Assembly: GCA_965230295.1 (NCBI GenBank)
Contig: OZ246001.1
Coordinates: 3,827,502 to 3,891,501 of the forward strand
Origin: Marinicella sp.
GTDB lineage: Bacteria > Pseudomonadota > Gammaproteobacteria > Xanthomonadales > Marinicellaceae
Reading direction: 5' to 3'
DNA length: 64,000 bases
Shown: in pieces, positions 4,477 through 28,659 of the stretch
How the letters are laid out: each line of letters starts with the position of its first letter
How positions within the stretch are numbered: position 1 is the stretch's first letter
Notes under the pieces: model-generated
Database searches by the model: none
What the model saw: only the letters and a program-made list of their open reading frames with translations
Told to the model about the DNA's origin: nothing
Translations under genes and position numbers: made by a program

Positions 4477-6237
4477 ATGAAACCAATAATAACTTTACTA
4501 TTTATTTTTTCTTTCTCATCTTCTTTTGCTGGTGGTGATATTGATCCATTTGTCATTACCATCACTACCACACCCCGCAACCAAGCAGACACAAACACTT
4601 TATTCAAATACGATTTACCAACTACTGAATATGAATACTCATATGATGTTGATTGGGACTACAATGGAGTCTTTGAAGCAGATGAAGTAGATGTAAATGG
4701 AATTTTAGAACATGATTACGGTAATCCTGGAGAATATACCATTGCTATTAAAGGGATATTTCCTAAATTTGGTTCATCACGCCCTGATCATATAGATCAA
4801 TTAGTAAGCATAGATCAATGGGGAGATATTGTTTGGAAAAGTTTTGAAAGCTCTTTTCGTGGTCAATATGATATCCGACCCGCTAGTTATATTGTAAATG
4901 CAACAGACATTCCTGACTTGTCAATGGTTAACTCTCTATCAGAAATGTTTTTTATTTCAAGCCAAGCTAATCCAGATGTGACTGGGTGGGATACATCCAA
5001 TGTTACTGACATGAGCTTTATGTTTTCTGTTACTGACGCAGCCAACCCAAATGTGAGTGGATGGGATACATCCAACGTTACTGACATGAGCTTTATGTTT
5101 TCTTTTGCTGACGCAGCCAACCCAAATGTAAGTGGGTGGGATACCTCCAATGTTACTGACATGAGCGGTATGTTTTTTGATTCTGCCATAGCCAACCCAG
5201 ATGTGAGCTTATGGGATACATCCAACGTTACTGACATGAGCTTTATGTTTTCTTTTGCTGACGCAGCTAACCCAGATGTGAGTGGGTGGGATACATCCAA
5301 TGTTACTAAAATGGGCGATATGTTTGCAATAGCAAGATTAGCTAACCCAGATGTGAGTGGATGGGATACATCCAATGTTACTGACATGACCCGTATGTTT
5401 TATGGTGCTGATGCAGCAAACCCAGATGTGAGTTTATGGGATACATCCAATGTTACTGACATGACCCGCATGTTTTTTGGTGCTATCTTAGCCACCCCAG
5501 ATGTGAGTTTATGGGATACATCCAATGTTGCTGATATGAATGAATTGTTCGCTTATGCAGGATCTGCTAATCCTGATTTAAGAAACTGGGTTATTGAAAA
5601 TGTTAATAGCATGAATGACATGTTTAACTCTAACAAAATGAAACGCAGTAATTATGAAGCCGCACTGATTTCTTTTGCGACGCAATTTACGAATAATAAT
5701 GTTAATTTTGCTGCTGGTTCTTCTCTGTATTGCTCATCAGCTGCTGAAAATGCAAAAACCTTTCTTACAGGCCCTACCAAGAATTGGACGATAGTCGATG
5801 GATCTGATGGTTTACCAAGTTGCGACATAAATGATGTTTCTGTTTCTATAGAAAGTAATCGTAGCCTACTTGCCCCAGGAGGTATGGTTACTTACCACAT
5901 CAGTATTAAAAATGATGGGGATAGGGATATTGATGATTTGAATGTGATCACCAATACAATGTTATTAACCAACTTGAATTGGGGATGTGAGGCCGTCAGC
6001 GCCACATGTCAAGATTCAGCTGGTAATGGTCCAATTTTGCACAGTAGTACAATAAATTCAGGTGGTGAAATCACTTATATTATCAATGCTACTAATGCAG
6101 GTATGAATGGTGAATATGCTATGATTTCTATTACAGCACAAAGCATCGATACCCCAGATGATTTTCTAAGAGATAATACTGCAACTTTGAATAGCAGAAC
6201 ATCAGATGATATTATTTTTTATAATTCACTCGATTAA
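4477..6237 (+). CDS. BspA-like/DUF285 surface repeat protein with C-terminal DUF11-like domain
   Basis: Signal peptide; eight 25-aa NPDVSxWDTSNVTDMxxMF repeats; YHISIKNDG...DNTA DUF11-like segment; ends DIIFYNSLD. Confidence 0.88.
   Translation: MKPIITLLFIFSFSSSFAGGDIDPFVITITTTPRNQADTNTLFKYDLPTTEYEYSYDVDWDYNGVFEADEVDVNGILEHDYGNPGEYTIAIKGIFPKFGSSRPDHIDQLVSIDQWGDIVWKSFESSFRGQYDIRPASYIVNATDIPDLSMVNSLSEMFFISSQANPDVTGWDTSNVTDMSFMFSVTDAANPNVSGWDTSNVTDMSFMFSFADAANPNVSGWDTSNVTDMSGMFFDSAIANPDVSLWDTSNVTDMSFMFSFADAANPDVSGWDTSNVTKMGDMFAIARLANPDVSGWDTSNVTDMTRMFYGADAANPDVSLWDTSNVTDMTRMFFGAILATPDVSLWDTSNVADMNELFAYAGSANPDLRNWVIENVNSMNDMFNSNKMKRSNYEAALISFATQFTNNNVNFAAGSSLYCSSAAENAKTFLTGPTKNWTIVDGSDGLPSCDINDVSVSIESNRSLLAPGGMVTYHISIKNDGDRDIDDLNVITNTMLLTNLNWGCEAVSATCQDSAGNGPILHSSTINSGGEITYIINATNAGMNGEYAMISITAQSIDTPDDFLRDNTATLNSRTSDDIIFYNSLD
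4966..5565 (+). repeat. Intragenic 75-bp tandem repeats (8 copies)
   Basis: Near-identical GCxAACCCAGATGTGAGT..TGGGATACATCCAATGTTACTGACATG units. Confidence 0.9.
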
Positions 6238-8965: not shown

Positions 8966-9040
8966 TTGTGCCTGTATTGAACGATTTTCTGTTCCTGCCT
9001 CCTACTATCAGCAGTAAATTCAATAGGTATGGGCACATTT
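8966..9040 (+). repeat. Conserved 3' hairpin element downstream of FG-GAP gene (copy 1)
   Basis: TTGTGCCTGTATTGAACG...CCTCCT...GGGCACATTT. Confidence 0.7.
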
Positions 9041-9531
9041 TAATAAATATGAATTATTTGGTCATAGTTATTTTCAATAACTAGCCTATGCTTATTTGTA
9101 AAACCAGCTGTTGTTTTATTGAGTTTATGCCACCTAGAAAGGCTGTCCAAACAATTTTGGATCCATACTTTGGTTTACTATCATAAACTGATAAAACATT
9201 TTGATACTTGAAAATTAATTCAAAACTCCAAGGGCCTTTATACGTGCCCTTGTGGTAAATGTTGATCAATAAGAGCAGATGTTTATGCTCGTTTTGAAAA
9301 ATAGCCCTGAGTTTTTCAGTTATTGGTTACAGTACAACTAACTCAAAGGCCAGGGCTTAATGCAAATGCGGTAGATGAACAATGCACCCTTGTGAAATCC
9401 GTTGAAATCACTAAAAATTAGTTATTCAAGGGTAATGAGTTTAGAGGTGAGTAATATTTAGGGCAAGGCATCAGCCGAGCTCAGGTACGCTGGAAAACCA
9501 GGTTTTCATCGTCTCCATCCTGATTAATCCA

Positions 9532-10170
9532 TTAGGATTTTTTAATAATTTCATTGTAAATAGTATTTATTTCTTGGCTAATTTTTGAACTTATAAATTC
9601 TTTTGAATAAACTGCATTTAAGTTATATAGAATTATTGGTGTGGTTTTTGACAATCCTAAATTCGTCAATAACTGAATAGGGCTGATCTCAAAGTTTAAT
9701 TAGCTATTCATACCATATGTATGCCGGAGCCATTGAGCAGTTGCTTTTTCACATTTTTTTAATATCTTCTTCAAAGTATTTTTCTAAGACCGTGTTTTTT
9801 ATACAGCGGCTGATTTTGCAGAATCAATTTACTTATATCATCAAAAACTATTATTATATTGGTAATTTGACGTATAGAAACTGTTTTTTGAGATACACGT
9901 TTGGCTACAAAAGAAATATTACCTGAATCTAACTCATTGGAGTTTTGCGCACATTCCCTCTAAATTCACATATTTTTTGCTAAGTGATTGATTGTGAATG
10001 TCATGTATTTGTTAATAGAACAATGGTCAAAAAATGTGATCATCATTGTTTTTTGAAGATTACAACGACACCCATTCTGACCAGTTTTAATCCTAACATT
10101 TATAATGTATCTAATCTAATGTTTACAACTTTAAGTACTGAACCAATAATCATTCAAAGTTATCGGTGGC
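9532..10170 (-). pseudogene. Decayed paralog of the degenerate tyrosine recombinase at 13082-14332
   Basis: Frameshifted minus-strand translation: LGLKL...RQITNIII.FDDISKLILQNQPLY...KYFEEDIKKCEKATAQWLRHTYG...LTNLGLSKTTPIILY...EINTIYNEII*. Compare the intact gene: FGLKI...RQISTIV...DISKIIIQNQSIY...KYFIDDIEKCQMATAQWLRNSFG...LGNYAPLSVILY...DIENIYDQII. Confidence 0.88.
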
Positions 10171-10219
10171 TATTCAATAATTGACCCAAAAAATTAATTT
10201 AATTCTTAAATACAATAAG

Positions 10220-10289
10220 GAGTGCACTTATTTACTGACAAGAGTGGAAAGGGAAAATATAAAGAGTCTAGCTTTCGATAAGTGCACAA
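10220..10289 (-). repeat. Conserved 3' hairpin element (copy 2)
   Basis: Minus strand TTGTGCACTTATCGAAAG...TTCCCTTTCC...CAGTAAATAAGTGCAC; 10-bp inverted repeat. Confidence 0.65.
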
Positions 10290-10305
10290 ACTGGTTGTTT
10301 AATGA

Positions 10306-11886
10306 TTAATCAAATTCAAACCCGTTAGTAAAAATGGCTGATTCTTTGCCAAAGATCACATAGCTTCTACCAGGTGATGTATCAGCCGGACCTGCATCAG
10401 GAGCCCCAATGATCAAATCATCAAACCCATCATCATTGACATCACCAGCTGAACTGACTGAAAAACCAGAGGAGTCAGCTGTATTTTCACCATTGATAAC
10501 AAAGCCATTTTTACCATTTATTGAGGACAGTTCAAACGGATTGGGTAAACCACTAGCACTGCCAAAAATCACATAGCTTTTTCCTGCATCTGTATTACCA
10601 TTTGGATCGGCAAGATTGGCTCCAATAATCAAATCAAAAATTCCATCACCATTGACATCACCCGCTGAACTGACAGAGTGACCTGACTCATCACCTGTAT
10701 TTTCACCATTGATAACAAAGCCATTTTTACCATTTATTGAGGACAGTTCAAACGGATTGGGTAAACCACTGGCACTGCCAAAAATCACATAGCTTTTACC
10801 TGCATTTGTCTTACCATTTGGATCGGCAAGTTTAGCTCCAATTATCAAATCATCAATCCCATCGTCATTGACATCACCTGCTGAACTGACAGAAAAGCCC
10901 AAATAATCATCAATATTTTCACCATTGATAACTAGACCAATCGGGCTAGTTAGACTAGACAGAGTTAACGGATTAGGAAAACCACTATTCCTATTCCTGC
11001 CAAAGATCAAATAGCTTTTACCATCGCTTTCTGCTCCAGGTGCCCCTACAATTAAATCATCAACCCCATCATCATTAATATCACCAGCTGAGCTAACTGA
11101 ACGGCCTGACCAATCATTTTCATTTTCGCCTTCGATAACAAACCCATTTTCATCTTTGAGATTTGATAGGTTTAGCGATCCCGAAAAACCACTTTTACTG
11201 CCAAAAACCACATAGCTTTTACCTGCAGATGATTCGTTATTCGGGCTTGCAGAAAAGGCCCCAATAATTAAATCAACAACCCCATCACCGTTTACGTCAC
11301 CAGCAGAACTGACTGAATAACCCGAATAATCATCTTCATTTTCGCCATTAATCATAAAACCATCCACGCCATAGGGAAATGAAAGATCAATCGGATTAGG
11401 TAAATCATCCTCACTGCCATACACCACATAACTTTTACCAGCTTTTGACTGTGCGCCATAAGCTCCAATGATCAAGTCATCAATCTCATCGCCATTGACA
11501 TCACCTGCTGAACTAACTGAAATACCTGAAAAATAGAACCTATTAACACCATTGGCAACAAAACCATTCTCACCATCAAGAGCTGAAAGGCTCAACAGCT
11601 TGGGAAAATCACCCTCACTGCCATACACTACATAGCTTTTACCAGCATTAAATCTACCACCTAAACCAGCGCTAAAAGCCCCAATGATCAAATCATCAAT
11701 TCCATCACCATTGATATCACCAGCTGAACTGACTGAAAAACCAGAGGAATCACCTTCATTTTCGCCGTTCATAACAAAGCCGTTGCTGCCATCAATATCT
11801 TCTAAGTTAAGACTTGAATAATACTCAGCAAATCCATCAGTAGAAATAAGTATCAAAGTAAAAGTTATATAAATAAATGTTTTCAT
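10306..11886 (-). CDS. Secreted FG-GAP repeat protein (7 repeats)
   Basis: Signal peptide; SVSSAGDVNxDGxDDLIIGA repeats; ends AIFTNGFEFD. Confidence 0.92.
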   Translation of the reverse strand: MKTFIYITFTLILISTDGFAEYYSSLNLEDIDGSNGFVMNGENEGDSSGFSVSSAGDINGDGIDDLIIGAFSAGLGGRFNAGKSYVVYGSEGDFPKLLSLSALDGENGFVANGVNRFYFSGISVSSAGDVNGDEIDDLIIGAYGAQSKAGKSYVVYGSEDDLPNPIDLSFPYGVDGFMINGENEDDYSGYSVSSAGDVNGDGVVDLIIGAFSASPNNESSAGKSYVVFGSKSGFSGSLNLSNLKDENGFVIEGENENDWSGRSVSSAGDINDDGVDDLIVGAPGAESDGKSYLIFGRNRNSGFPNPLTLSSLTSPIGLVINGENIDDYLGFSVSSAGDVNDDGIDDLIIGAKLADPNGKTNAGKSYVIFGSASGLPNPFELSSINGKNGFVINGENTGDESGHSVSSAGDVNGDGIFDLIIGANLADPNGNTDAGKSYVIFGSASGLPNPFELSSINGKNGFVINGENTADSSGFSVSSAGDVNDDGFDDLIIGAPDAGPADTSPGRSYVIFGKESAIFTNGFEFD

Positions 11887-13081: not shown

Positions 13082-14332
13082 TCAGTTTGAAAGTTTGTTG
13101 TTTTCAATAATTTGGTCATATATATTTTCAATATCCAACTTATATTTATCGGTAAATTTGCCTGCATTTTTAGCTGAATTCACGCGATATAAAATAACTG
13201 ACAATGGGGCATAGTTACCAAGAGTTTTCATTGCCTCAATTGGTCTCATCGACTTATTTTCTACCTTTGCACTCCCAAATGAGTTTCTTAACCATTGAGC
13301 AGTAGCCATTTGGCACTTTTCAATATCATCAATGAAATATTTTTTGTATGTGGTATTTTCATAAATAGATTGGTTCTGAATAATTATTTTGCTGATATCC
13401 ATTAAAGTTGATCCAACAATGGTCGAAATCTGCCTAGTTGTTATTTTCTTTAGTTTATAGGTATTTGAAACCAAAGGAATGATGACATCAGAATCAGTTT
13501 CGAAATATTCAGCCATGTAGCTTAGTTGTGAATTAATTACTTTCAACTGCTCAGAGTTCAAACTGATATAACGTTCATTTGAACCCATGATTTTAAGGAA
13601 TAATTCATTTTCTAAAGAAATTACATCTGAATTTTTCATATTGGAAAGTTCTGTTATTTTGAGCCCGAACTCTAACAAAATGTAAATGATCAAAAAAGCG
13701 CGATTGGCTTCAAAACAATCATAAGAAAAGCGATCGTAATCTGTTTCTTGTGCTAATACTGTTAATATGAACCTAGTTAGCTGGGGGTTTAAAGTTTTGC
13801 TGTTATACCGACTTTCCAATTCGCTGAGAGAATCATCTTTCATGAGATAGGCTGGTACAGGGTTCCTATATAAATAACAATTTGATTTCAAAAATCTGTA
13901 AAGAGTGTGTATTTTCCTAAGTGAGGACCTTACTGAAACCTTGGATCGAATTGATTTACGAAAGGGACGCCATTCAGGATTAATGCTATCATCGATTAAG
14001 ATTTTTTTCTGATGAGTCCCCACCCATCTCTTTAAAGGTTTTGGATTGTAAAGAAATTCAGAGTAGGCCATGCAATTATCTGTCGTGAAAGCAGTAAAAG
14101 AAATGTTATTCTGCTCTAACCACAATAAAAATGTTTCAATTTCTTTGTAATAGGCACTTATGGTGTTTTTCACAGATTCCTTCATTGAAAGAAACTTCAT
14201 AATTGCATCAATATCAGTATTCACAGACAAATCGTTTTCTAAGTCTTTGCACAGGTTTTGGCCTGGAGCAAATACATCTGGCACTCTGTGCAGAATAACT
14301 TTTGAGGATTTATATAACAGTATCGGCTCCAT
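13082..14332 (-). CDS. Tyrosine-recombinase-fold protein with degenerate catalytic motifs (candidate TnsF-like target selector)
   Basis: Core-binding domain (T..AYYKEIETFLLW, WRPF, YLYRNP); box I FGLKITEL (R to K); no GKG/K; box II QWLRNS (H to Q); LGN (H to N); Tyr retained; starts 11 nt after the tniQ stop. Confidence 0.85.
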   Translation of the reverse strand: MEPILLYKSSKVILHRVPDVFAPGQNLCKDLENDLSVNTDIDAIMKFLSMKESVKNTISAYYKEIETFLLWLEQNNISFTAFTTDNCMAYSEFLYNPKPLKRWVGTHQKKILIDDSINPEWRPFRKSIRSKVSVRSSLRKIHTLYRFLKSNCYLYRNPVPAYLMKDDSLSELESRYNSKTLNPQLTRFILTVLAQETDYDRFSYDCFEANRAFLIIYILLEFGLKITELSNMKNSDVISLENELFLKIMGSNERYISLNSEQLKVINSQLSYMAEYFETDSDVIIPLVSNTYKLKKITTRQISTIVGSTLMDISKIIIQNQSIYENTTYKKYFIDDIEKCQMATAQWLRNSFGSAKVENKSMRPIEAMKTLGNYAPLSVILYRVNSAKNAGKFTDKYKLDIENIYDQIIENNKLSN

Positions 14333-14343
14333 AATTTACACTC

Positions 14344-15705
14344 TTAGAAATATGAGTTGATTGCTTCGCCACCGAGATTAAAAATACTCAATAATTTTCT
14401 GGATTGTTTATTATCAAATTCAAAAATATCTTCAGGATAATAAACTGATAGTTTTAATTCATCTAATATGAATGTATATGGGCACCTGCATTCAAAGTTA
14501 TTTTGCAAGCCACCAACTATTTTACCATCGTCACTCTTTTTTGTTTGTTCCAAGAAAGATGACACGTACTTGAAAATACTGAGATAAGTGGTCCATAAAT
14601 CTATCTTATAAACCAACATTGATAGCTCCATAGGCATGCGATAGAACTTTAATTCTGATTTATCACAAATTACTTCATGTCTAATGAAAAACTGATGGAC
14701 TTGAGGTAGCTTAAGGCCACGACTAGTCATGTTGTTATATAAATCAGTAAAAACTGAAGCAGACCTATCTTCTGGCACATAATGACCATCATGAAGTAGC
14801 TTAATTAACTCTAGTGTGTTTGTCTTAATGTGGGCACTTGTTAAATCAGCGGTGTTGTTTTTAAGTAAGCATCTAATTTTTGATAATGATTTTTGGGTTA
14901 CTCTAACTTTTTGCTTATCTAGAGCACTCCAATAGTCATTTTCATTCACAAATCTGGACATATTGTCATCAGTTGTAACAGTATATTTTTGCTTGTTAAT
15001 TCGATAAAAAGGAACTTTTAACTCTTGAGCAAGTTGTTTCTCTGATTCAAATAAATCACCTTCCTTTGCCATTACAGATAAATTGAAAATGTGGTTATTA
15101 TTAATAACAGGCTTTGGAGTGAAAAACTGTGTATCTAAATACAGTTCAAATTTTGGCAGATACTTTTTCGAACGTCTTATGATTGAGTTTAAGAAATGGA
15201 CTTGGTCAAATTTTTCGTCACATGGTATTTTATTTGATTTGACTATTTGATTATCTAATTTTGTACCACAGGAACTACAGCCTCTTGATATTAAGTCATG
15301 AGACATAGGCCAGTGAATTCCACATACATGACAGTTTGTTATTAAATCAGCATCATGAATAGGGCACTTTAGTAACCAAGGTTCATCAAATAGTTTTGTA
15401 TGAAACCCAATCTCAGCGCATTCTGGGCAATGCTTTAGTGGTCTATATCCTTTTTGTAATAAAAGATTCAACCTTTGATCTGATGGAATGTTTGATCTTT
15501 CATACATACTAGCAAGCAATGCAGGCTTGTATGCAATCAGTTTAGAATTAATAAATAGCTCACTTCCTTTGATGCCGACGTTCTTGAATTCTTTAATGAC
15601 TTTGCAGATAGAATTTAACCTTTGATTTGCAATAAGAAACCTGCGATAAGCGGAGTAGGGGCTTTCTCCTGGTCTTTTCAGCATTTGGCCAGTATTAATC
15701 ATCAA
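14344..15705 (-). CDS. tniQ: TniQ/TnsD-family protein
   Basis: Zinc-finger motifs CPEC...CPIH...CHVC...CSSCG; ATGA overlap with tnsC. Confidence 0.85.
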   Translation of the reverse strand: MMINTGQMLKRPGESPYSAYRRFLIANQRLNSICKVIKEFKNVGIKGSELFINSKLIAYKPALLASMYERSNIPSDQRLNLLLQKGYRPLKHCPECAEIGFHTKLFDEPWLLKCPIHDADLITNCHVCGIHWPMSHDLISRGCSSCGTKLDNQIVKSNKIPCDEKFDQVHFLNSIIRRSKKYLPKFELYLDTQFFTPKPVINNNHIFNLSVMAKEGDLFESEKQLAQELKVPFYRINKQKYTVTTDDNMSRFVNENDYWSALDKQKVRVTQKSLSKIRCLLKNNTADLTSAHIKTNTLELIKLLHDGHYVPEDRSASVFTDLYNNMTSRGLKLPQVHQFFIRHEVICDKSELKFYRMPMELSMLVYKIDLWTTYLSIFKYVSSFLEQTKKSDDGKIVGGLQNNFECRCPYTFILDELKLSVYYPEDIFEFDNKQSRKLLSIFNLGGEAINSYF

Positions 15706-16664
15706 ACTAACTCAACTTCATCAGGAATCAAGCCAGAAGCATTTATACTGGCTTCTACCATCTGGCTCATTAGAATAGGGTCATTGACTCCGTTGTTGGG
15801 AATAAAATCAAACAACAATATACGAATCATGGATAGAAAGTATTGAATGGGCCATGACTCTATTCCAGCTTCTTTACGAAAGCATTCCTCATAAACTTGC
15901 CAGATGATTTCTGTAATATCAATTAATCTCCAGTCATCAGACACTTCCTGATTCCATAGGTATTCTTTGGTATACGAGTTTTTCTTTGTAAACAAATATT
16001 TTTGATCAATCTCACTTAAACATGCCTTCAGTTCTATTTCCTTTCTGATTCCATAGAAATTATGAAATTTCAATAAAAACCGTCCCCTTATCAATTCATA
16101 CTGTGGGTTTTCTTTCATCTTGTCTAATAACTGTACCGAAGCAGAATGATTCCCAACAAAGAAAATCGAAAGATGAATCCCAAAATTCATCAATCCATCA
16201 TAGAGTTCAGCAAATACTTCAAACTGTTTAGGCCTAAGTCTTTGCATTTCATCAATAAAAAGAATCAGATTATGAGGAGTTTTAGAATTAGTCGCAGACT
16301 CACCAAGAAAATAAATCAAATCATTAGCCATAATGTCTGCGCGAGTATTCTCAGTTATTGATAGTTCAGCTGAATAGCACAGCTGCCTAAGTATTCCTGT
16401 AATGGTTCCTACATCTCTTGGTGCTATAGAAGTGAAATGGCAATTAATTTTTTGATTTCTTCTTGTGTATATTCGATCTTTGACATGCTGTATTGCCGAG
16501 GTTTTTCCAATTCGGTTAGAACCAAGAATGACCCCTCCAGAGAAGCCATTCAAATGCCATTTATGGATGACCTCAGACAGTTCATCAATCATCGGAGTTG
16601 TTATAAAAAACTCCTTTAGATTCATCATCTGATCATAAATATTTGAGGAGCCATCATTACTCAT
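15702..16664 (-). CDS. tnsC: TnsC-like AAA+ ATPase
   Basis: Walker A GSNRIGKT; Walker B LFIDE; AAGGAG RBS and ATGA overlap with the tnsB stop support a start at 16664. Confidence 0.88.
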   Translation of the reverse strand: MSNDGSSNIYDQMMNLKEFFITTPMIDELSEVIHKWHLNGFSGGVILGSNRIGKTSAIQHVKDRIYTRRNQKINCHFTSIAPRDVGTITGILRQLCYSAELSITENTRADIMANDLIYFLGESATNSKTPHNLILFIDEMQRLRPKQFEVFAELYDGLMNFGIHLSIFFVGNHSASVQLLDKMKENPQYELIRGRFLLKFHNFYGIRKEIELKACLSEIDQKYLFTKKNSYTKEYLWNQEVSDDWRLIDITEIIWQVYEECFRKEAGIESWPIQYFLSMIRILLFDFIPNNGVNDPILMSQMVEASINASGLIPDEVELV

Positions 16665-18565
16665 CTTTTTTCTCCTTTGAATAAACCTCTGTTCCATTCG
16701 AAAGGGTTGTGTGATTTCCCGGTTTGAGTAAGATCTACTTCGTGATTGCTGTTGTTATTAAAATCATTTATTTCATCATCAGTTTTAAGGTGGTCAAAGG
16801 TGTTTATGCTTGAATTAAACTCTTTGGCCAGCCTCACTATTTCTAATGCTTCGCTAGGAAGGTGCTTGTCTCTCATGTGAATATCAAACATATTTCTGAG
16901 GGGATCTTTCAGTTTCAGGTTTTCCTTTCTGGTATATTTTGAGATTCTTTTTTTGGTTCTAAGCGAGAATGGGTGAGACTGCCAAGAAAGTGGAGCCATC
17001 AAAGCTCCAAGAGATGTTCCATCTTCCTTAAATGCTTCAACCACTCTCAAGTCCCTTCTGTCAAAACGGATGGTTATTTTCTGATTTTCTAATTCAGACT
17101 CGTTCAATCCTTCTCCAACATACCGAAGCCCATTAAAACTGATTTCTGGTGCTCGATTGTCACTTTTATACCAACATATTTTTCTGGTGTCTTGAGATAC
17201 AAATGGGCCTATGTTGTCTTCCCTCATTGCATAATTAATCCTTAGTGGATGACGTTCGTTTTGATATTTCAGATAATCTAATGGTGAAAGACCTCCCAAG
17301 CGCTCACGAGGCCGAGTGTTCTCAGCTGACACGACTACACTGATAACTTCTTCTAGTGTGCGCAGGGAAAAAGTAGGAACCTTCTTTGTATTAGATTTTG
17401 TTTCTTTAAGAGGATCTAAAACATGGGAGCCAGTTGTTGATGGAAAACGATGAATAATTTCATTTAATAATTTAAATGCGTACTCAATTAATTGTCTACT
17501 CTTAGGATTTGCTGGTAAACCATAATTGAGGGTTGCTCCCAATGTAATTAAAACATAATCTTTTATACTCTTAGCCCTATGGCATTTTGCATTATCAAGT
17601 CCTACAATGCCAATTGATCGAAATTGAAACTCCTCATCCAGAGCACTTGGTAAACATGCACCCAATTGATATTCTAGCCCTGGTGTTTTCAATTCCATTG
17701 GCTCCCATTTTTCGTTTAGAAAACTGAATAAATTCAATAAGTCATCTTGATTAGGTTCTTTGGTGTAGCACAAAAAGTAAGAAAGAATACAATCAGATGC
17801 AACATCTTTCATCATAAATAAAGAAAGTCGCGAGAGCTTTAATGTTTTAATTACTCCATTATCATCAATAGCTATATTTACTTTTATATCTGTTAACTGA
17901 GAATCCAGTTGTATTTTTTGAAATGGCAGGAGGTCAATAATTTGAGTCTGGTTAATTGACCGCTGTTTTTTCTTCTTTGGCATGCGGTATTTATTAACCA
18001 ATTTATGAAAATACCTTCTACAACTTTCTAATGCCTTGTTAGACTGATCGAAAGGATATTGATCATCAGGCCAGTTTAAGTCTTCCAACTCTGCTAGAAA
18101 CGCTTTATGAAAACTTTTTGGGGTCATGTTTTCTGCATTAGGATCCCTTCGCACAAACGCTTTTACTTTGTTCTTGAGTCTTTCGGTCATTTCTATGTTT
18201 TCCTCAAGAATTTTAGTAAATGAACCTCGAGCTCCTGAACATTTATGCTTACTTAAAGATTTTTTTCTTTTTCCATTATTTATTTTTTGACCTGGAATCA
18301 ATGCTTTAGTTAAAGGTTGATCGTCATCCTCATAACCTGCCAATGCTCTACTCATTAAACGGCTTATTGCTGAAACCGAGATATTTTCCTCATCAGCTAT
18401 ATCTTTAAACCTAATACCTAACAGTACTTTTATTACAATCCGTTGATTTCTTAAAAATTTTGTTCTTTTAACCCCCTTAAATTTCTTATGGTTTACTTTC
18501 GGCCAATTTTTATAATCTCTAAGTAGTGGAGAATACTGAAGCCGGAGTAACCATGTTAACCACAT
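16661..18565 (-). CDS. tnsB: TnsB-like DDE transposase
   Basis: QLDSQLTD, GLDNAKCH and LIEYAF give the D-D-E triad; Mu-transposase-like C-terminus. Confidence 0.88.
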   Translation of the reverse strand: MWLTWLLRLQYSPLLRDYKNWPKVNHKKFKGVKRTKFLRNQRIVIKVLLGIRFKDIADEENISVSAISRLMSRALAGYEDDDQPLTKALIPGQKINNGKRKKSLSKHKCSGARGSFTKILEENIEMTERLKNKVKAFVRRDPNAENMTPKSFHKAFLAELEDLNWPDDQYPFDQSNKALESCRRYFHKLVNKYRMPKKKKQRSINQTQIIDLLPFQKIQLDSQLTDIKVNIAIDDNGVIKTLKLSRLSLFMMKDVASDCILSYFLCYTKEPNQDDLLNLFSFLNEKWEPMELKTPGLEYQLGACLPSALDEEFQFRSIGIVGLDNAKCHRAKSIKDYVLITLGATLNYGLPANPKSRQLIEYAFKLLNEIIHRFPSTTGSHVLDPLKETKSNTKKVPTFSLRTLEEVISVVVSAENTRPRERLGGLSPLDYLKYQNERHPLRINYAMREDNIGPFVSQDTRKICWYKSDNRAPEISFNGLRYVGEGLNESELENQKITIRFDRRDLRVVEAFKEDGTSLGALMAPLSWQSHPFSLRTKKRISKYTRKENLKLKDPLRNMFDIHMRDKHLPSEALEIVRLAKEFNSSINTFDHLKTDDEINDFNNNSNHEVDLTQTGKSHNPFEWNRGLFKGEKR

Positions 18566-19221
18566 AATTTCACCTCAGTATCATATGAAAACGGCCTCTC
18601 TTCTAAATTCATGATAACCATCCCTTTATGACATAATCTATAGAAAGCAATCTCATGAGCTTTTTTATTAAACCTATCATGCTGAGAAATGATGTCACCC
18701 AACTGCTGCTCTGGTGTAATGCTTAAGGAATCTAATATCTTATATTCTTGGTTCTGTGTTTCAATGTGACTGTTTATAACAAGAGCTCTGATAATTTCGA
18801 GCCAGTTAACAGCAAATATTTCTCTATCCAACACTTCTTCATTTGAGATAACCAAGAATTCAATATTTTCTCTTTTTAGGTAGGCTTTTAATGGGATTTG
18901 TATTCTCTGACTAAATTTACCCTTAGGTTTGAGTTCAACAATATATTTCTTGCCATTTTTTACATAGTAACAATCAGGGATATATGGCCTGTTTCCTATT
19001 AAGAATTTGTGTGATTGAGGCACAAATCTTGTTACTTCAGGATCACTTTCTAAAATTGCCGCATGAAGAAATTCGCTCTTCGAATGAAATATTCCAACTT
19101 CTGGAAATTTAATGAATATTTGATAAAAACAATTACTGCCTTCTTCTATTTTTTTCGCGTCAGCCATATGCTGGAAAGGGGTTAATGTATCTGTTTTTAC
19201 TTTTAAATTACTAGTTTTCAT
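18556..19221 (-). CDS. tnsA: TnsA-like PD-(D/E)XK endonuclease
   Basis: SKSEF...LESDPEV...Q, YIPD and IVELKP motifs; overlaps the tnsB start. Confidence 0.85.
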   Translation of the reverse strand: MKTSNLKVKTDTLTPFQHMADAKKIEEGSNCFYQIFIKFPEVGIFHSKSEFLHAAILESDPEVTRFVPQSHKFLIGNRPYIPDCYYVKNGKKYIVELKPKGKFSQRIQIPLKAYLKRENIEFLVISNEEVLDREIFAVNWLEIIRALVINSHIETQNQEYKILDSLSITPEQQLGDIISQHDRFNKKAHEIAFYRLCHKGMVIMNLEERPFSYDTEVKLCG

Positions 19222-19259: not shown

Positions 19260-19317
19260 AACAACAATATTTATTGGAAGTAACAACAATATTTTCTGTT
19301 GTTACAACATTTTATTG
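19260..19317. repeat. About 22-bp-period direct repeats (ACAACAATATTT-like) with near-palindrome TGTTGTTACAACA; candidate TnsB sites, transposon end or regulator operator
   Basis: ACAACAATATTTATTG (19261), ACAACAATATTTTCTG (19283), ACAACATTTTATTG (19304). Confidence 0.6.
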
Positions 19318-19389
19318 AAAAATTTTATAGCCAATGCTATATTGATAGTTGTAATTTTTTAAACGTATTAGTCGGAGCATGAAATCTTC

Positions 19390-19860
19390 ATGGTCGAAAA
19401 ACAAAATAATGTAAAAGGTTACAAACCTGGCCAGGTTTGTGAGCTTATAGGTGAGAGCTATGAAACCCTAAGATATTGGAGAGAATACCTATACCCCAAA
19501 CCTCCCCAAATTCATTTCAGTTTGAATGATATTTTCATTTACCATTTCATAAAATCTTTTATTAAAGGAAAGAGAGTAGATGTCAACGAACTTGAAAAAG
19601 TAGAATGGAGAAAAATTTTACAAAGATGTAGTAGCTTGAGTGCTGAAGAGAAAAAGTCTTGCATTGCTGTATTTGACTTTCAGAGCAGAAAATTTTCTTT
19701 TATAACATCTATCAATCAAATAGATTTAAGCGATGACAGGTACACTTTTGTTTACATGAAAACAATTTTTAATCGATTTAATTTATCATTGCGAAAATTT
19801 GGAAATGCTAGGTCAAATATTGTTCCTATAGAAACCGGCCTTTTTATTGAAGCCTCTTAA
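19390..19860 (+). CDS. MerR-type HTH regulator divergent from tnsA
   Basis: YKPGQVCELIGESYETLRYW resembles a MerR HTH. Confidence 0.65.
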   Translation: MVEKQNNVKGYKPGQVCELIGESYETLRYWREYLYPKPPQIHFSLNDIFIYHFIKSFIKGKRVDVNELEKVEWRKILQRCSSLSAEEKKSCIAVFDFQSRKFSFITSINQIDLSDDRYTFVYMKTIFNRFNLSLRKFGNARSNIVPIETGLFIEAS

Positions 19861-27645: not shown

Positions 27646-27815
27646 TAAAAGTTGGCGGTTTACGTAGCTATGTGGTCACTGGGCCCTTATGGAGGTTTGA
27701 TACCCAAATTAGCCCGAATTTAGTCAATCACCCAAGAGTTGACTCAGAAAAACAAATTATCTCAATAGCTTACGTGGGTTTCATGTCCATTTTTGGTTAA
27801 ATCTGGCACATCACC

Positions 27816-28412
27816 CTAAATTTGAATTCGAGGTTCCCAACGATGTGATTTATAGTGTCTGTAGCTTTCAAGAAGAGTAAAGTTGTTATTTTCTTTACTT
27901 AATAAGTTTAATGCTTTTAGATATTCATTTTGATTTGAGAAATTGAAGCCAAAGTTTTGAGGTGATTATAATCTTTTGACGACTTCTAAATATGTTAATA
28001 CTTCTTGTTTATTATTTGGATTGAATGAATGAAAATTTGACCATACAAGTAAGCTGATTTTTTCTCTCATTAAATAAAGATTCAAAATACAAGCATCAGC
28101 ATAAAAACTTACTGGTCCATATGTTTGTGAATGTGCTTGACCATCAGTAGTAACTTCTTTATATGCCAACGAGTGTGACTTCATTTTTGTGAAGCCATAA
28201 ACAAGTTGATCTGCCAAATGTTTAATGTCATTTGCCCAATGGAATGTATTGAACTTCCAATGACTGTTTTGATTTTTATAAAATTTAGTTCTTAAAATAT
28301 TAAATTCAATATCTAGCTGATTAATTTCTACATGCTTACACACATCATCAGTAAGAGAGTGATAAATGTTATCCGCATTGTCAAACACGTCTTTATTCGT
28401 TAAGTTTGTCAT
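27816..28412 (-). pseudogene. HEPN-domain (R-x4-H) protein interrupted by a premature stop
   Basis: ORF 27966-28412 continues in frame past TAA to ...ESYRHYKSHRWEPRIQI*; RHYKSH at 27860-27843. Confidence 0.6.
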
Positions 28413-28528: not shown

Positions 28529-28601
28529 TTTAGTGGGTTAGTTGTAACTTTAGTGGGTTAGTTGTGAAAAGTTTAGTGGTTTAGTTGTGCCTCCAAAAAC
28601 A
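28529..28601 (-). mobile_element. Tn7-like transposon end facing into the island
   Basis: Minus strand TGTTTT-TGGAGGC-ACAACTAAACCACTAAA-N6-ACAACTAACCCACTAAA-N3-ACAACTAACCCACTAAA: three 17-bp repeats at 20-23 bp period; terminal TG at 28595 or TGT at 28601. Confidence 0.75.
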
Positions 28602-28631: not shown

Positions 28632-28659
28632 TATACGCATAATATATATTATGTTAAAT
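28632..28659 (+). other. dif: dif site (XerC/XerD chromosome dimer resolution)
   Basis: TATACGCATAA-TATATA-TTATGTTAAAT versus E. coli GGTGCGCATAA-TGTATA-TTATGTTAAAT; XerD arm identical; genes on both sides mostly point toward it. Confidence 0.92.

Follow-up and report, generated by a model that had tools for sequence, protein, structure and literature searches.

Tn7-like transposons are known to pile up and decay at their attachment sites, as described for the Tn7 and Tn6022 islands by the Peters laboratory (PMC11014353). In such islands, site-specific insertion occurs in one orientation, so that the newest arrivals flank the att site and earlier ones are displaced away from it; repeated rounds of gain and loss of DNA leave incomplete tns genes and composite elements behind, and target immunity restricts the stacking of like elements (PMC11014353). 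Target choice in Tn6022 involves TnsF, an inactivated derivative of a tyrosine recombinase that, together with TniQ, directs the element to comM (PMC10293859, PMC11014353). At ~480-500 aa, TnsF combines zinc fingers at its N-terminus with tandem core-binding domains, and its catalytic domain is only partial, with no active-site pocket (PMC10293859). Some Tn6022 elements also carry a XerC-like recombinase and a dif-like site, the recombinase having all its catalytic residues, recombining with host XerD and being captured cargo (PMC11014353).

The locus described here, in a 64,000-nucleotide stretch of the chromosome of Marinicella sp. (contig OZ246001.1, 3,827,502-3,891,501; hereafter the window, to which coordinates refer unless given as genome positions), resembles the Tn7 and Tn6022 islands in each of the respects outlined above, namely insertion in one orientation with the older elements displaced outward, the traces of insertion and deletion cycles, and a stacking pattern of the kind that target immunity would impose. 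It differs from them in three ways: the landing site is dif rather than glmS or comM; the debris is that of a recombinase-like fifth gene; and the stack extends over more than 120 kb and comprises three distinct sets of TnsB sites.

The element nearest to dif, E1, is 73,713 bp long (73.7 kb). Its right end (28529-28595) comprises three packed TnsB sites of the form TTTAGTGG[G/T]TTAGTTGT (28529-28588), 20-23 bp apart, and closes with the terminus ...GCCTCCA, followed by the pentamer AAAAC at 28596-28600. The same pentamer stands at the left end (genome 3782379-3782383), beside an inverted array of three sites spaced at 60-65 bp (genome 3782384-3782532), 45 kb to the left of the window. Read inward, both arrays finish in the terminus of the family, TGGAGGCACAAC and TAAAGATACAAC, with TG/ANNNNNNCAAC as its conserved form, and inverted multi-site ends of this kind, spaced on the left and packed on the right with a 5-bp target duplication, are those of a Tn7-like element. 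The metagenome contig L003 likewise carries three spaced copies of TTTAGTGG(G/T)TTAGTTGT, beginning 245 bp past its fifth operon gene. The interior of E1 (window 1-28595 and genome 3783000-3827500) is dominated by roughly twenty FG-GAP repeat genes, with LRR, CotH and trypsin-like secreted proteins among the remainder, unlike the cargo of L003 and of a further contig, L022, in which defence or resistance genes are seen. The first gene inside the right end (27813-28412, minus strand) is a pseudogene, with an in-frame stop at 27966 and a truncation after ~200 of 291 residues; the ORF next after a decayed right end in L003 shares 67% identity with it, and a 38%-identical copy lies at genome 2505034-2505504.

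Thirty-six bp from the E1 right terminus begins the chromosomal dif site, TATACGCATAATATATATTATGTTAAAT (28632-28659, plus strand), which agrees with E. coli dif in 24 of its 28 positions, sits at the turn of the GC skew, is conserved in nine relatives and is unique in the genome, the second-best match being elsewhere with 8 mismatches. The distance to the transposon end recurs. Three congeners have right termini of the family type 35 bp from dif (a fourth has none), and in an unrelated gammaproteobacterial metagenome-assembled genome, L030, the terminus TGGACGTCCAAC is found beside the other arm of dif, 36 bp away; among the matches listed in the TnsB-site scan of genome contigs, most of which were chance or simple-repeat hits, this alone was informative. 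On the evidence of these positions, the family inserts with its right end 35-36 bp from chromosomal dif, a landing site for which the literature searched held no report among Tn7-like elements. The L030 terminus is on the XerD-arm side of dif, E1 on the XerC-arm side. Within L030 5118-5900, dif, the 36-bp interval and the family right terminus are followed some 600-700 bp further on by sites of the left-end type, an arrangement that looks like a miniature non-autonomous or deleted element.

Mobile DNA also piles up in tandem at dif in the case of IMEX elements, such as CTX phage and the gonococcal genetic island, which use XerCD recombination within dif and regenerate dif-like sites. The ends found here differ in being arrays of TnsB sites that lie 35-36 bp outside dif and are flanked by a 5-bp duplication, and no second dif-like site, as an IMEX would leave, was found in the island with up to 8 mismatches allowed. 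The 3' end of a usp gene, considered as the attachment site, was dropped in favour of dif, and TTGGACGTCCAAC, considered as a host palindrome bound by the recombinase, proved to be the right terminus of the neighbouring older element. In four congeners (loci L018-L021) the gene on the right side of dif has its homologue at 90739-92139 of this genome, and not among the usp, hydrolase and katG genes that come after dif here; the dif neighbourhood has been rearranged in this genome.

Directly beyond the left end of E1 the sequence reads TGGACGTCCAACCAAAG..., followed by more site-like repeats, and here the right terminus TGGACGTCCAAC of a second element, E2, adjoins E1. That a motif of this type is a genuine family terminus follows from the left terminus of L022, TGGACATCCAAC, together with the right end in L030. 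E2 spans 47,911 bp (47.9 kb; genome 3734469-3782379, window -93032 to -45122), stands in tandem with E1 and encodes its own tnsA, tnsB, tnsC and tniQ (genome 3742755-3747581) in the same orientation, with ~40% identity to those of E1; were E1 taken out, the E2 terminus would be 35-36 bp from dif. A third right end, TGGATGTCCAACTAAAGTGCTGAAC... at genome 3734462, abuts the left end of E2 and marks a third element, E3. All three lie in one orientation on one side of dif, the E1/E2 and E2/E3 junctions are clean, and in L003, too, the left end adjoins a decayed right end. Elements accumulate head-to-tail at dif with the newest adjoining it, and the stacking in a single orientation that had been proposed for this region is visible directly in the E1/E2/E3 tandem. 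Target immunity blocks a second like element and not a heterologous one (PMC11014353). The TnsB sites differ among E1, E2 and E3, which fits an immunity confined to like elements. Besides heavy-metal efflux genes and a ~1000-aa ORF resembling a Tn3-family transposase, E2 encodes (genome 3776396-3777637, plus strand) a tyrosine recombinase of 413 aa from the broad family that also includes the degenerate protein considered below (HMM E 5e-63); with its full canonical set of LRISEL, GKGRKIR, HWLRH, LGH and Tyr it is an active cousin of that protein.

The transposition genes of E1 form an operon on the minus strand, 9.4 kb from the right end: tnsA (18556-19221; Pfam Tn7_TnsA-like_N at E 0.005, below the cutoff), tnsB (16661-18565; Mu-transpos_C, E 1.5e-4), tnsC (15702-16697; AAA_22, E 4e-9) and a tniQ-like gene of 453 aa (14344-15705), which has no Pfam match and is named from its position and size only. 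The presence of these four genes in one operon, in an order kept in three lineages, is the core of a Tn7-like element. The fifth and last gene (13082-14332), which we call rec, is intact and encodes a degenerate tyrosine recombinase of 416 aa; it begins 11 nt past tniQ, and in L022 overlaps it by 4 nt. Divergent from the operon is a helix-turn-helix gene (19390-19860, plus strand), conserved in position in two other lineages and 29% identical to its L003 counterpart. The five-gene order with the divergent gene recurs on L003, where the fifth protein is 86% identical, and on contigs L022-L024, where it is 33% identical. In the gap between tnsA and the divergent gene, 19260-19320 holds GTTGT-containing repeats with a 22-bp period and the palindrome TGTTGTAACAACA; L003 has GTTGT-containing repeats of the same period and the palindrome AAGTGGGTTGTCAACAACCCACTT at 5000-5100. 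For these repeats an operator is a likelier identity than the end of a transposon. The cluster at 19260-19320 is an improbable candidate for the true right end of the element, given that L003 and L022 retain the divergent gene, and no family end was found within 5 kb upstream of tnsA in either contig.

A search of 1.8 billion representative proteins yielded 780 relatives of the 416-aa protein, and the catalytic set was counted in the 152 of them that were retrieved, 122 of which have the canonical R-H-R-H-Y. The resident protein has K225, no GKG lysine, Q346, R349, N373 and Y382, a pattern that is the same in the foreign relatives P0002-P0004; among the 152, the set K, Q/K, R, N/I, Y is restricted to four Tn7-linked proteins, which are also without the GKG lysine. 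The closest canonical relative looked up comes from a small Rep3 plasmid-like contig without tns genes. The original prediction had taken the loss of catalysis for a family trait rather than recent decay, and this distribution supports it: the eroded set is a property of the Tn7-linked clade and no recent accident. The dN/dS of rec between the window and L003 is 0.107, against 0.08-0.10 for tnsA, tnsB and tnsC, and the gene is by this measure under purifying selection. Its AlphaFold model (pLDDT 88) shows a complete two-domain tyrosine-recombinase fold, best matched among solved structures by XerA, XerH bound to difH, Cre and lambda integrase (~360-400 columns for XerA, XerH and Cre), and its best matches among curated families are Xer proteins, at scores far under their cutoffs. 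The product of rec is thus an Xer-like protein with an eroded catalytic set, kept under selection and encoded within the core operon of the transposon.

TnsF is the nearest analogue of such a protein, since in both cases a dead relative of the tyrosine recombinases stands directly after tniQ, is conserved across lineages and is under selection. The 416-aa protein is unlike TnsF in having one core-binding domain and, in the AlphaFold model, a complete catalytic-domain fold; no cysteine clusters are present in its aligned N-terminus, the Tyr and the second Arg are retained, and its element resides at dif. It gave no match to any TnsF-type model and is not a member of the TnsF family; at most it works like TnsF. 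The XerC-like protein of Tn6022 is alike in being a Xer-type tyrosine recombinase tied to a Tn7-like element, from which the resident protein differs as an eroded member of the core operon. By analogy with TnsF, rec is most likely a DNA-binding target selector for dif that works with TniQ, because it combines a Xer-like fold, a place after tniQ, conservation and a dif landing site. The intact protein would bind dif or the adjoining region and present it to TniQ and TnsC, as TnsF does with comM. No rec-like gene occurs in E2 or in those congeners whose ends lie 35 bp from dif, and hence some lineages reach dif without it, perhaps through the C-terminal part of TniQ or through XerCD bound at dif.

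Against this background, the original prediction held that a second, frameshifted copy of rec lay hidden on the minus strand at 9532-10170, where it aligned with the C-terminal half of the gene and was missing from the list of open reading frames. A tblastn search of the window with the 416-aa protein confirms that such a copy exists, and with significance: aa 337-410 align with 9762-9541 (34% identity) and aa 285-331, collinear and in another frame, with 9917-9780 (36% identity), at a joint E of 6e-12, the two pieces being bridged by a short one in the third frame (aa 325-339, 9799-9752). Searched against the whole 4.0-Mb genome, the protein again recovered this remnant (E 3.4e-9; the match contains one TAG and one TAA) and no further copies. 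An HMM built from the foreign relatives P0002-P0004 only matched three collinear stop-to-stop fragments (9774-9959, E 3.6e-6; 9703-9783, E 1.9e-5; 9535-9699, E 5e-7), and at the DNA level the remnant is 60% identical to the intact gene over 314 columns (E 5e-11). With at least two frameshifts, which spread it over three reading frames, an in-frame stop and a truncation to aa ~285-412 relative to its intact relatives, it is a pseudogene, and a 45-aa ORF is all that the list of open reading frames shows of it. A peptide of 125 residues, reconstructed by reading through the two frameshifts, matches the rec proteins of L003 (E 7e-24) and L022 (E 1e-16).

The extent of this fragment, which we call remnant 2, is smaller than had been claimed. 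It occupies 9535-9917 on the minus strand and corresponds to the 3' third of the gene rather than half of it. Between 9900 and 10330 the family HMM gives no fragment a score, even at a database size of one, and frameshift-tolerant alignment of aa ~190-290 of four clade members with 9925-10310 (60 shuffles per query) stays within the shuffled null. An LGLK string, with its GLK at ~10085-10093, is present near 10085-10096, about as far from AQWLR as it ought to be. Because nothing is detectable from 9925 to 10310, the GLK said to be shared by both copies is unsupported: the string is no better than a chance match, and its homology to the gene is not demonstrable. The other non-canonical residues said to be common to the two copies fare better in part. 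ATAQWLR is the same in both, and the remnant does read LGL where canonical enzymes have LGH, with the Tyr 9 residues further on retained, whereas the intact copy has LGN. At the catalytic positions remnant 2 thus reads Q, R, L and Y, and neither it nor the resident copy carries the R-K-H-R-H/W-Y set of an active tyrosine recombinase. It most likely does nothing now and is a broken leftover. That the fragment has instead been kept for a function, for example that the C-terminal helices encoded by the 45-aa ORF (9532-9669) bind TniQ and hinder incoming elements, is hardly credible. [quoted passage not shown]

A second vestige, remnant 3 (9052-9139, minus strand), consists of the last ~30 codons of another copy. 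It is 68.5% identical in DNA to 13106-13194 over 89 bp (E 4e-7), with a bit score of 46.8 against a mean of 26.1 and a maximum of 36.8 for the best matches of 300 shuffled queries, and its translation, KTTAGFTNKHRLVIENNYDQII, shares 13 of 22 aa with the resident KNAGKFTDKYKLDIENIYDQII. The 3' end of the gene is hence present three times in one orientation, as the intact copy, the 383 bp of remnant 2 and the 89 bp of remnant 3, the last of which is nearer to the resident lineage than remnant 2 is. On the operon strand the intact gene is followed after 3.1 kb by remnant 2, after a further ~400 bp by remnant 3, and then by 54 kb of cargo and the left end; both remnants are thus enclosed by the matched ends of E1 and occupy a 1.2-kb gap between two convergent FG-GAP genes.

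Fragments in the orientation and neighbourhood of the resident gene, whose homology stops at the same point of that gene (13101/13106), might be taken for local duplicates of its 3' end that then decayed neutrally. The common end point is, however, the end of the conserved coding sequence, and the homology of L003 stops there as well. Over shared columns of the 125-residue reconstructed peptide, remnant 2 is 37.6% identical to the resident protein, 37.6% to P0002, 37.6% to P0004, 32% to P0003 and 16-22% to canonical relatives, yet the resident protein and P0004 are only 24% identical. Decay could account for distance from a parent gene, but it cannot raise likeness to a third party, and remnant 2 for that reason stems from another lineage. 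P0003, which was recovered from a different sample, resembles the resident gene more closely (46.5%) than remnant 2 does, and remnant 3 has KHR as in P0002 where the resident protein has KYK. In a maximum-likelihood tree, remnant 2 falls inside the degenerate clade (bootstrap 100) and, being excluded from the group of P0001, P0002 and P0003 (bootstrap 98), takes a place between these three and P0004. Local duplication, which would have undone the prediction of an independent element, is accordingly very improbable; the tree and the P0004 identities indicate that remnant 2 comes from another lineage of the same family. No counterpart of it was found in L003 or L022, and a word-based search, for which the query was chimeric and only its remnant portion counted towards the score, returned no living relative closer to it than the known clade.

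Two earlier Tn7-like transposons, of the same family as the resident element, are in our judgement the probable source of remnants 2 and 3, each the dead vestige of a last gene. A newer element would have landed between dif and the older one, and a deletion would then have removed the new left end together with the right end, the tns genes and the 5' portion of rec of the older element. Such a junction deletion would have occurred twice, and a stack with two junction deletions yields exactly the order of remnants observed, in which only 3' ends survive, in operon orientation, between rec and the E1 left end. E1 itself would then be a composite. One of the deletions may have been caused by a Tn3-family transposon adjoining the breakpoint of remnant 2, where a solo Tn3-family-like terminal inverted repeat of 37 bp (9939-9976, plus strand) lies ~20 bp from the 5' breakpoint with its GGAG outer end at 9939. 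It agrees at 23 of 37 positions with the Tn3 inverted repeat, and has other copies in E2 (genome 3767121-3767157, the only other one in the genome) and in a congener locus (two copies in L013). Since Tn3-family elements cause adjacent deletions, the repeat is a plausible candidate for the cause of the truncation, though no inverted partner for it was found.

The surroundings of the remnants are less accommodating to this account. An 11-mer, GTTAGTTGTAC (9334-9344, minus strand), equals the outer part of the terminal TnsB site of the family in left-end orientation and lies ~190 bp beyond the remnant 2 stop, where it is at most suggestive; a 9-mer resembling a right terminus, TGGACAGCC, stands directly before remnant 3 at 9142-9150. 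Pattern scans with up to 5 mismatches found nothing significant near the remnants, and local alignment of 9040-9540 with four known end regions (300 shuffles each) did not rise above shuffled sequence, so that apart from these two short words no statistically supported ends flank either remnant. Nor is there tnsA, tnsB, tnsC or tniQ debris anywhere in the window. The account of stacking and deletion is weakened, too, by the lack of an intact representative of the remnant 2 lineage among the sequences found, and by the position of both remnants inside the ends of E1 with a single target duplication, an arrangement in which E1 may have arrived as a composite.

Fusion of E1 elsewhere, in another genome or replicon, followed by one transposition to this site, is the main competitor. 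The remnants lie between matched ends that share the pentamer AAAAC, the E1/E2 and E2/E3 junctions are clean while the junctions within E1 have gone, and the absence of rec from 40 relatives implies that the element was imported. Any element that inserts at a set distance from dif would use that pentamer again, however, and the duplication does not discriminate between the two histories; moreover, the left terminus of E1 has TA in place of the TG found elsewhere (TAAAGATA against TGGAGGCA and TGAAGGTA), which would be odd for a recently used end and hints that this end is old. We consider a single arrival of a ready-made composite unlikely; under that history the remnants would carry no information on whether this locus was entered more than once. 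The claim that a related element had been here earlier in the same orientation is accordingly sustained as to the independent element and its orientation, and not as to insertion at this very site: both remnants are inside E1 without provable ends beside them, and so they do not tell where E1 was assembled. Earlier elements stacked at dif and trimmed by junction deletions nonetheless remain our preferred source of the remnants. A more ambitious picture, which we regard as possible and hold only tentatively, is that dif is a pile-up site at which Tn7-like elements of different immunity groups arrive in succession and fuse, as their inner junctions are lost, into giant composites, that the remnants record at least three generations of this process within a single 74-kb element, and that the dead Xer-like protein is the reader of dif that belongs to the family itself.

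On its own, a remnant of this kind is ordinary transposon debris, and its value lies in what it says about its family. Remnant 2 is an independent fifth witness that the eroded set, in which Q replaces His, the third His position holds another residue and the Tyr is kept, is ancestral to the clade. Both remnants mark the 74-kb E1 as a composite with a history of replacement and, together with the E1/E2/E3 stack, document that related transposons arrived repeatedly beside dif in the same orientation. The locus and its relatives thereby offer a concrete system for asking how a dead recombinase became a selector, and how target immunity decides which elements stack.
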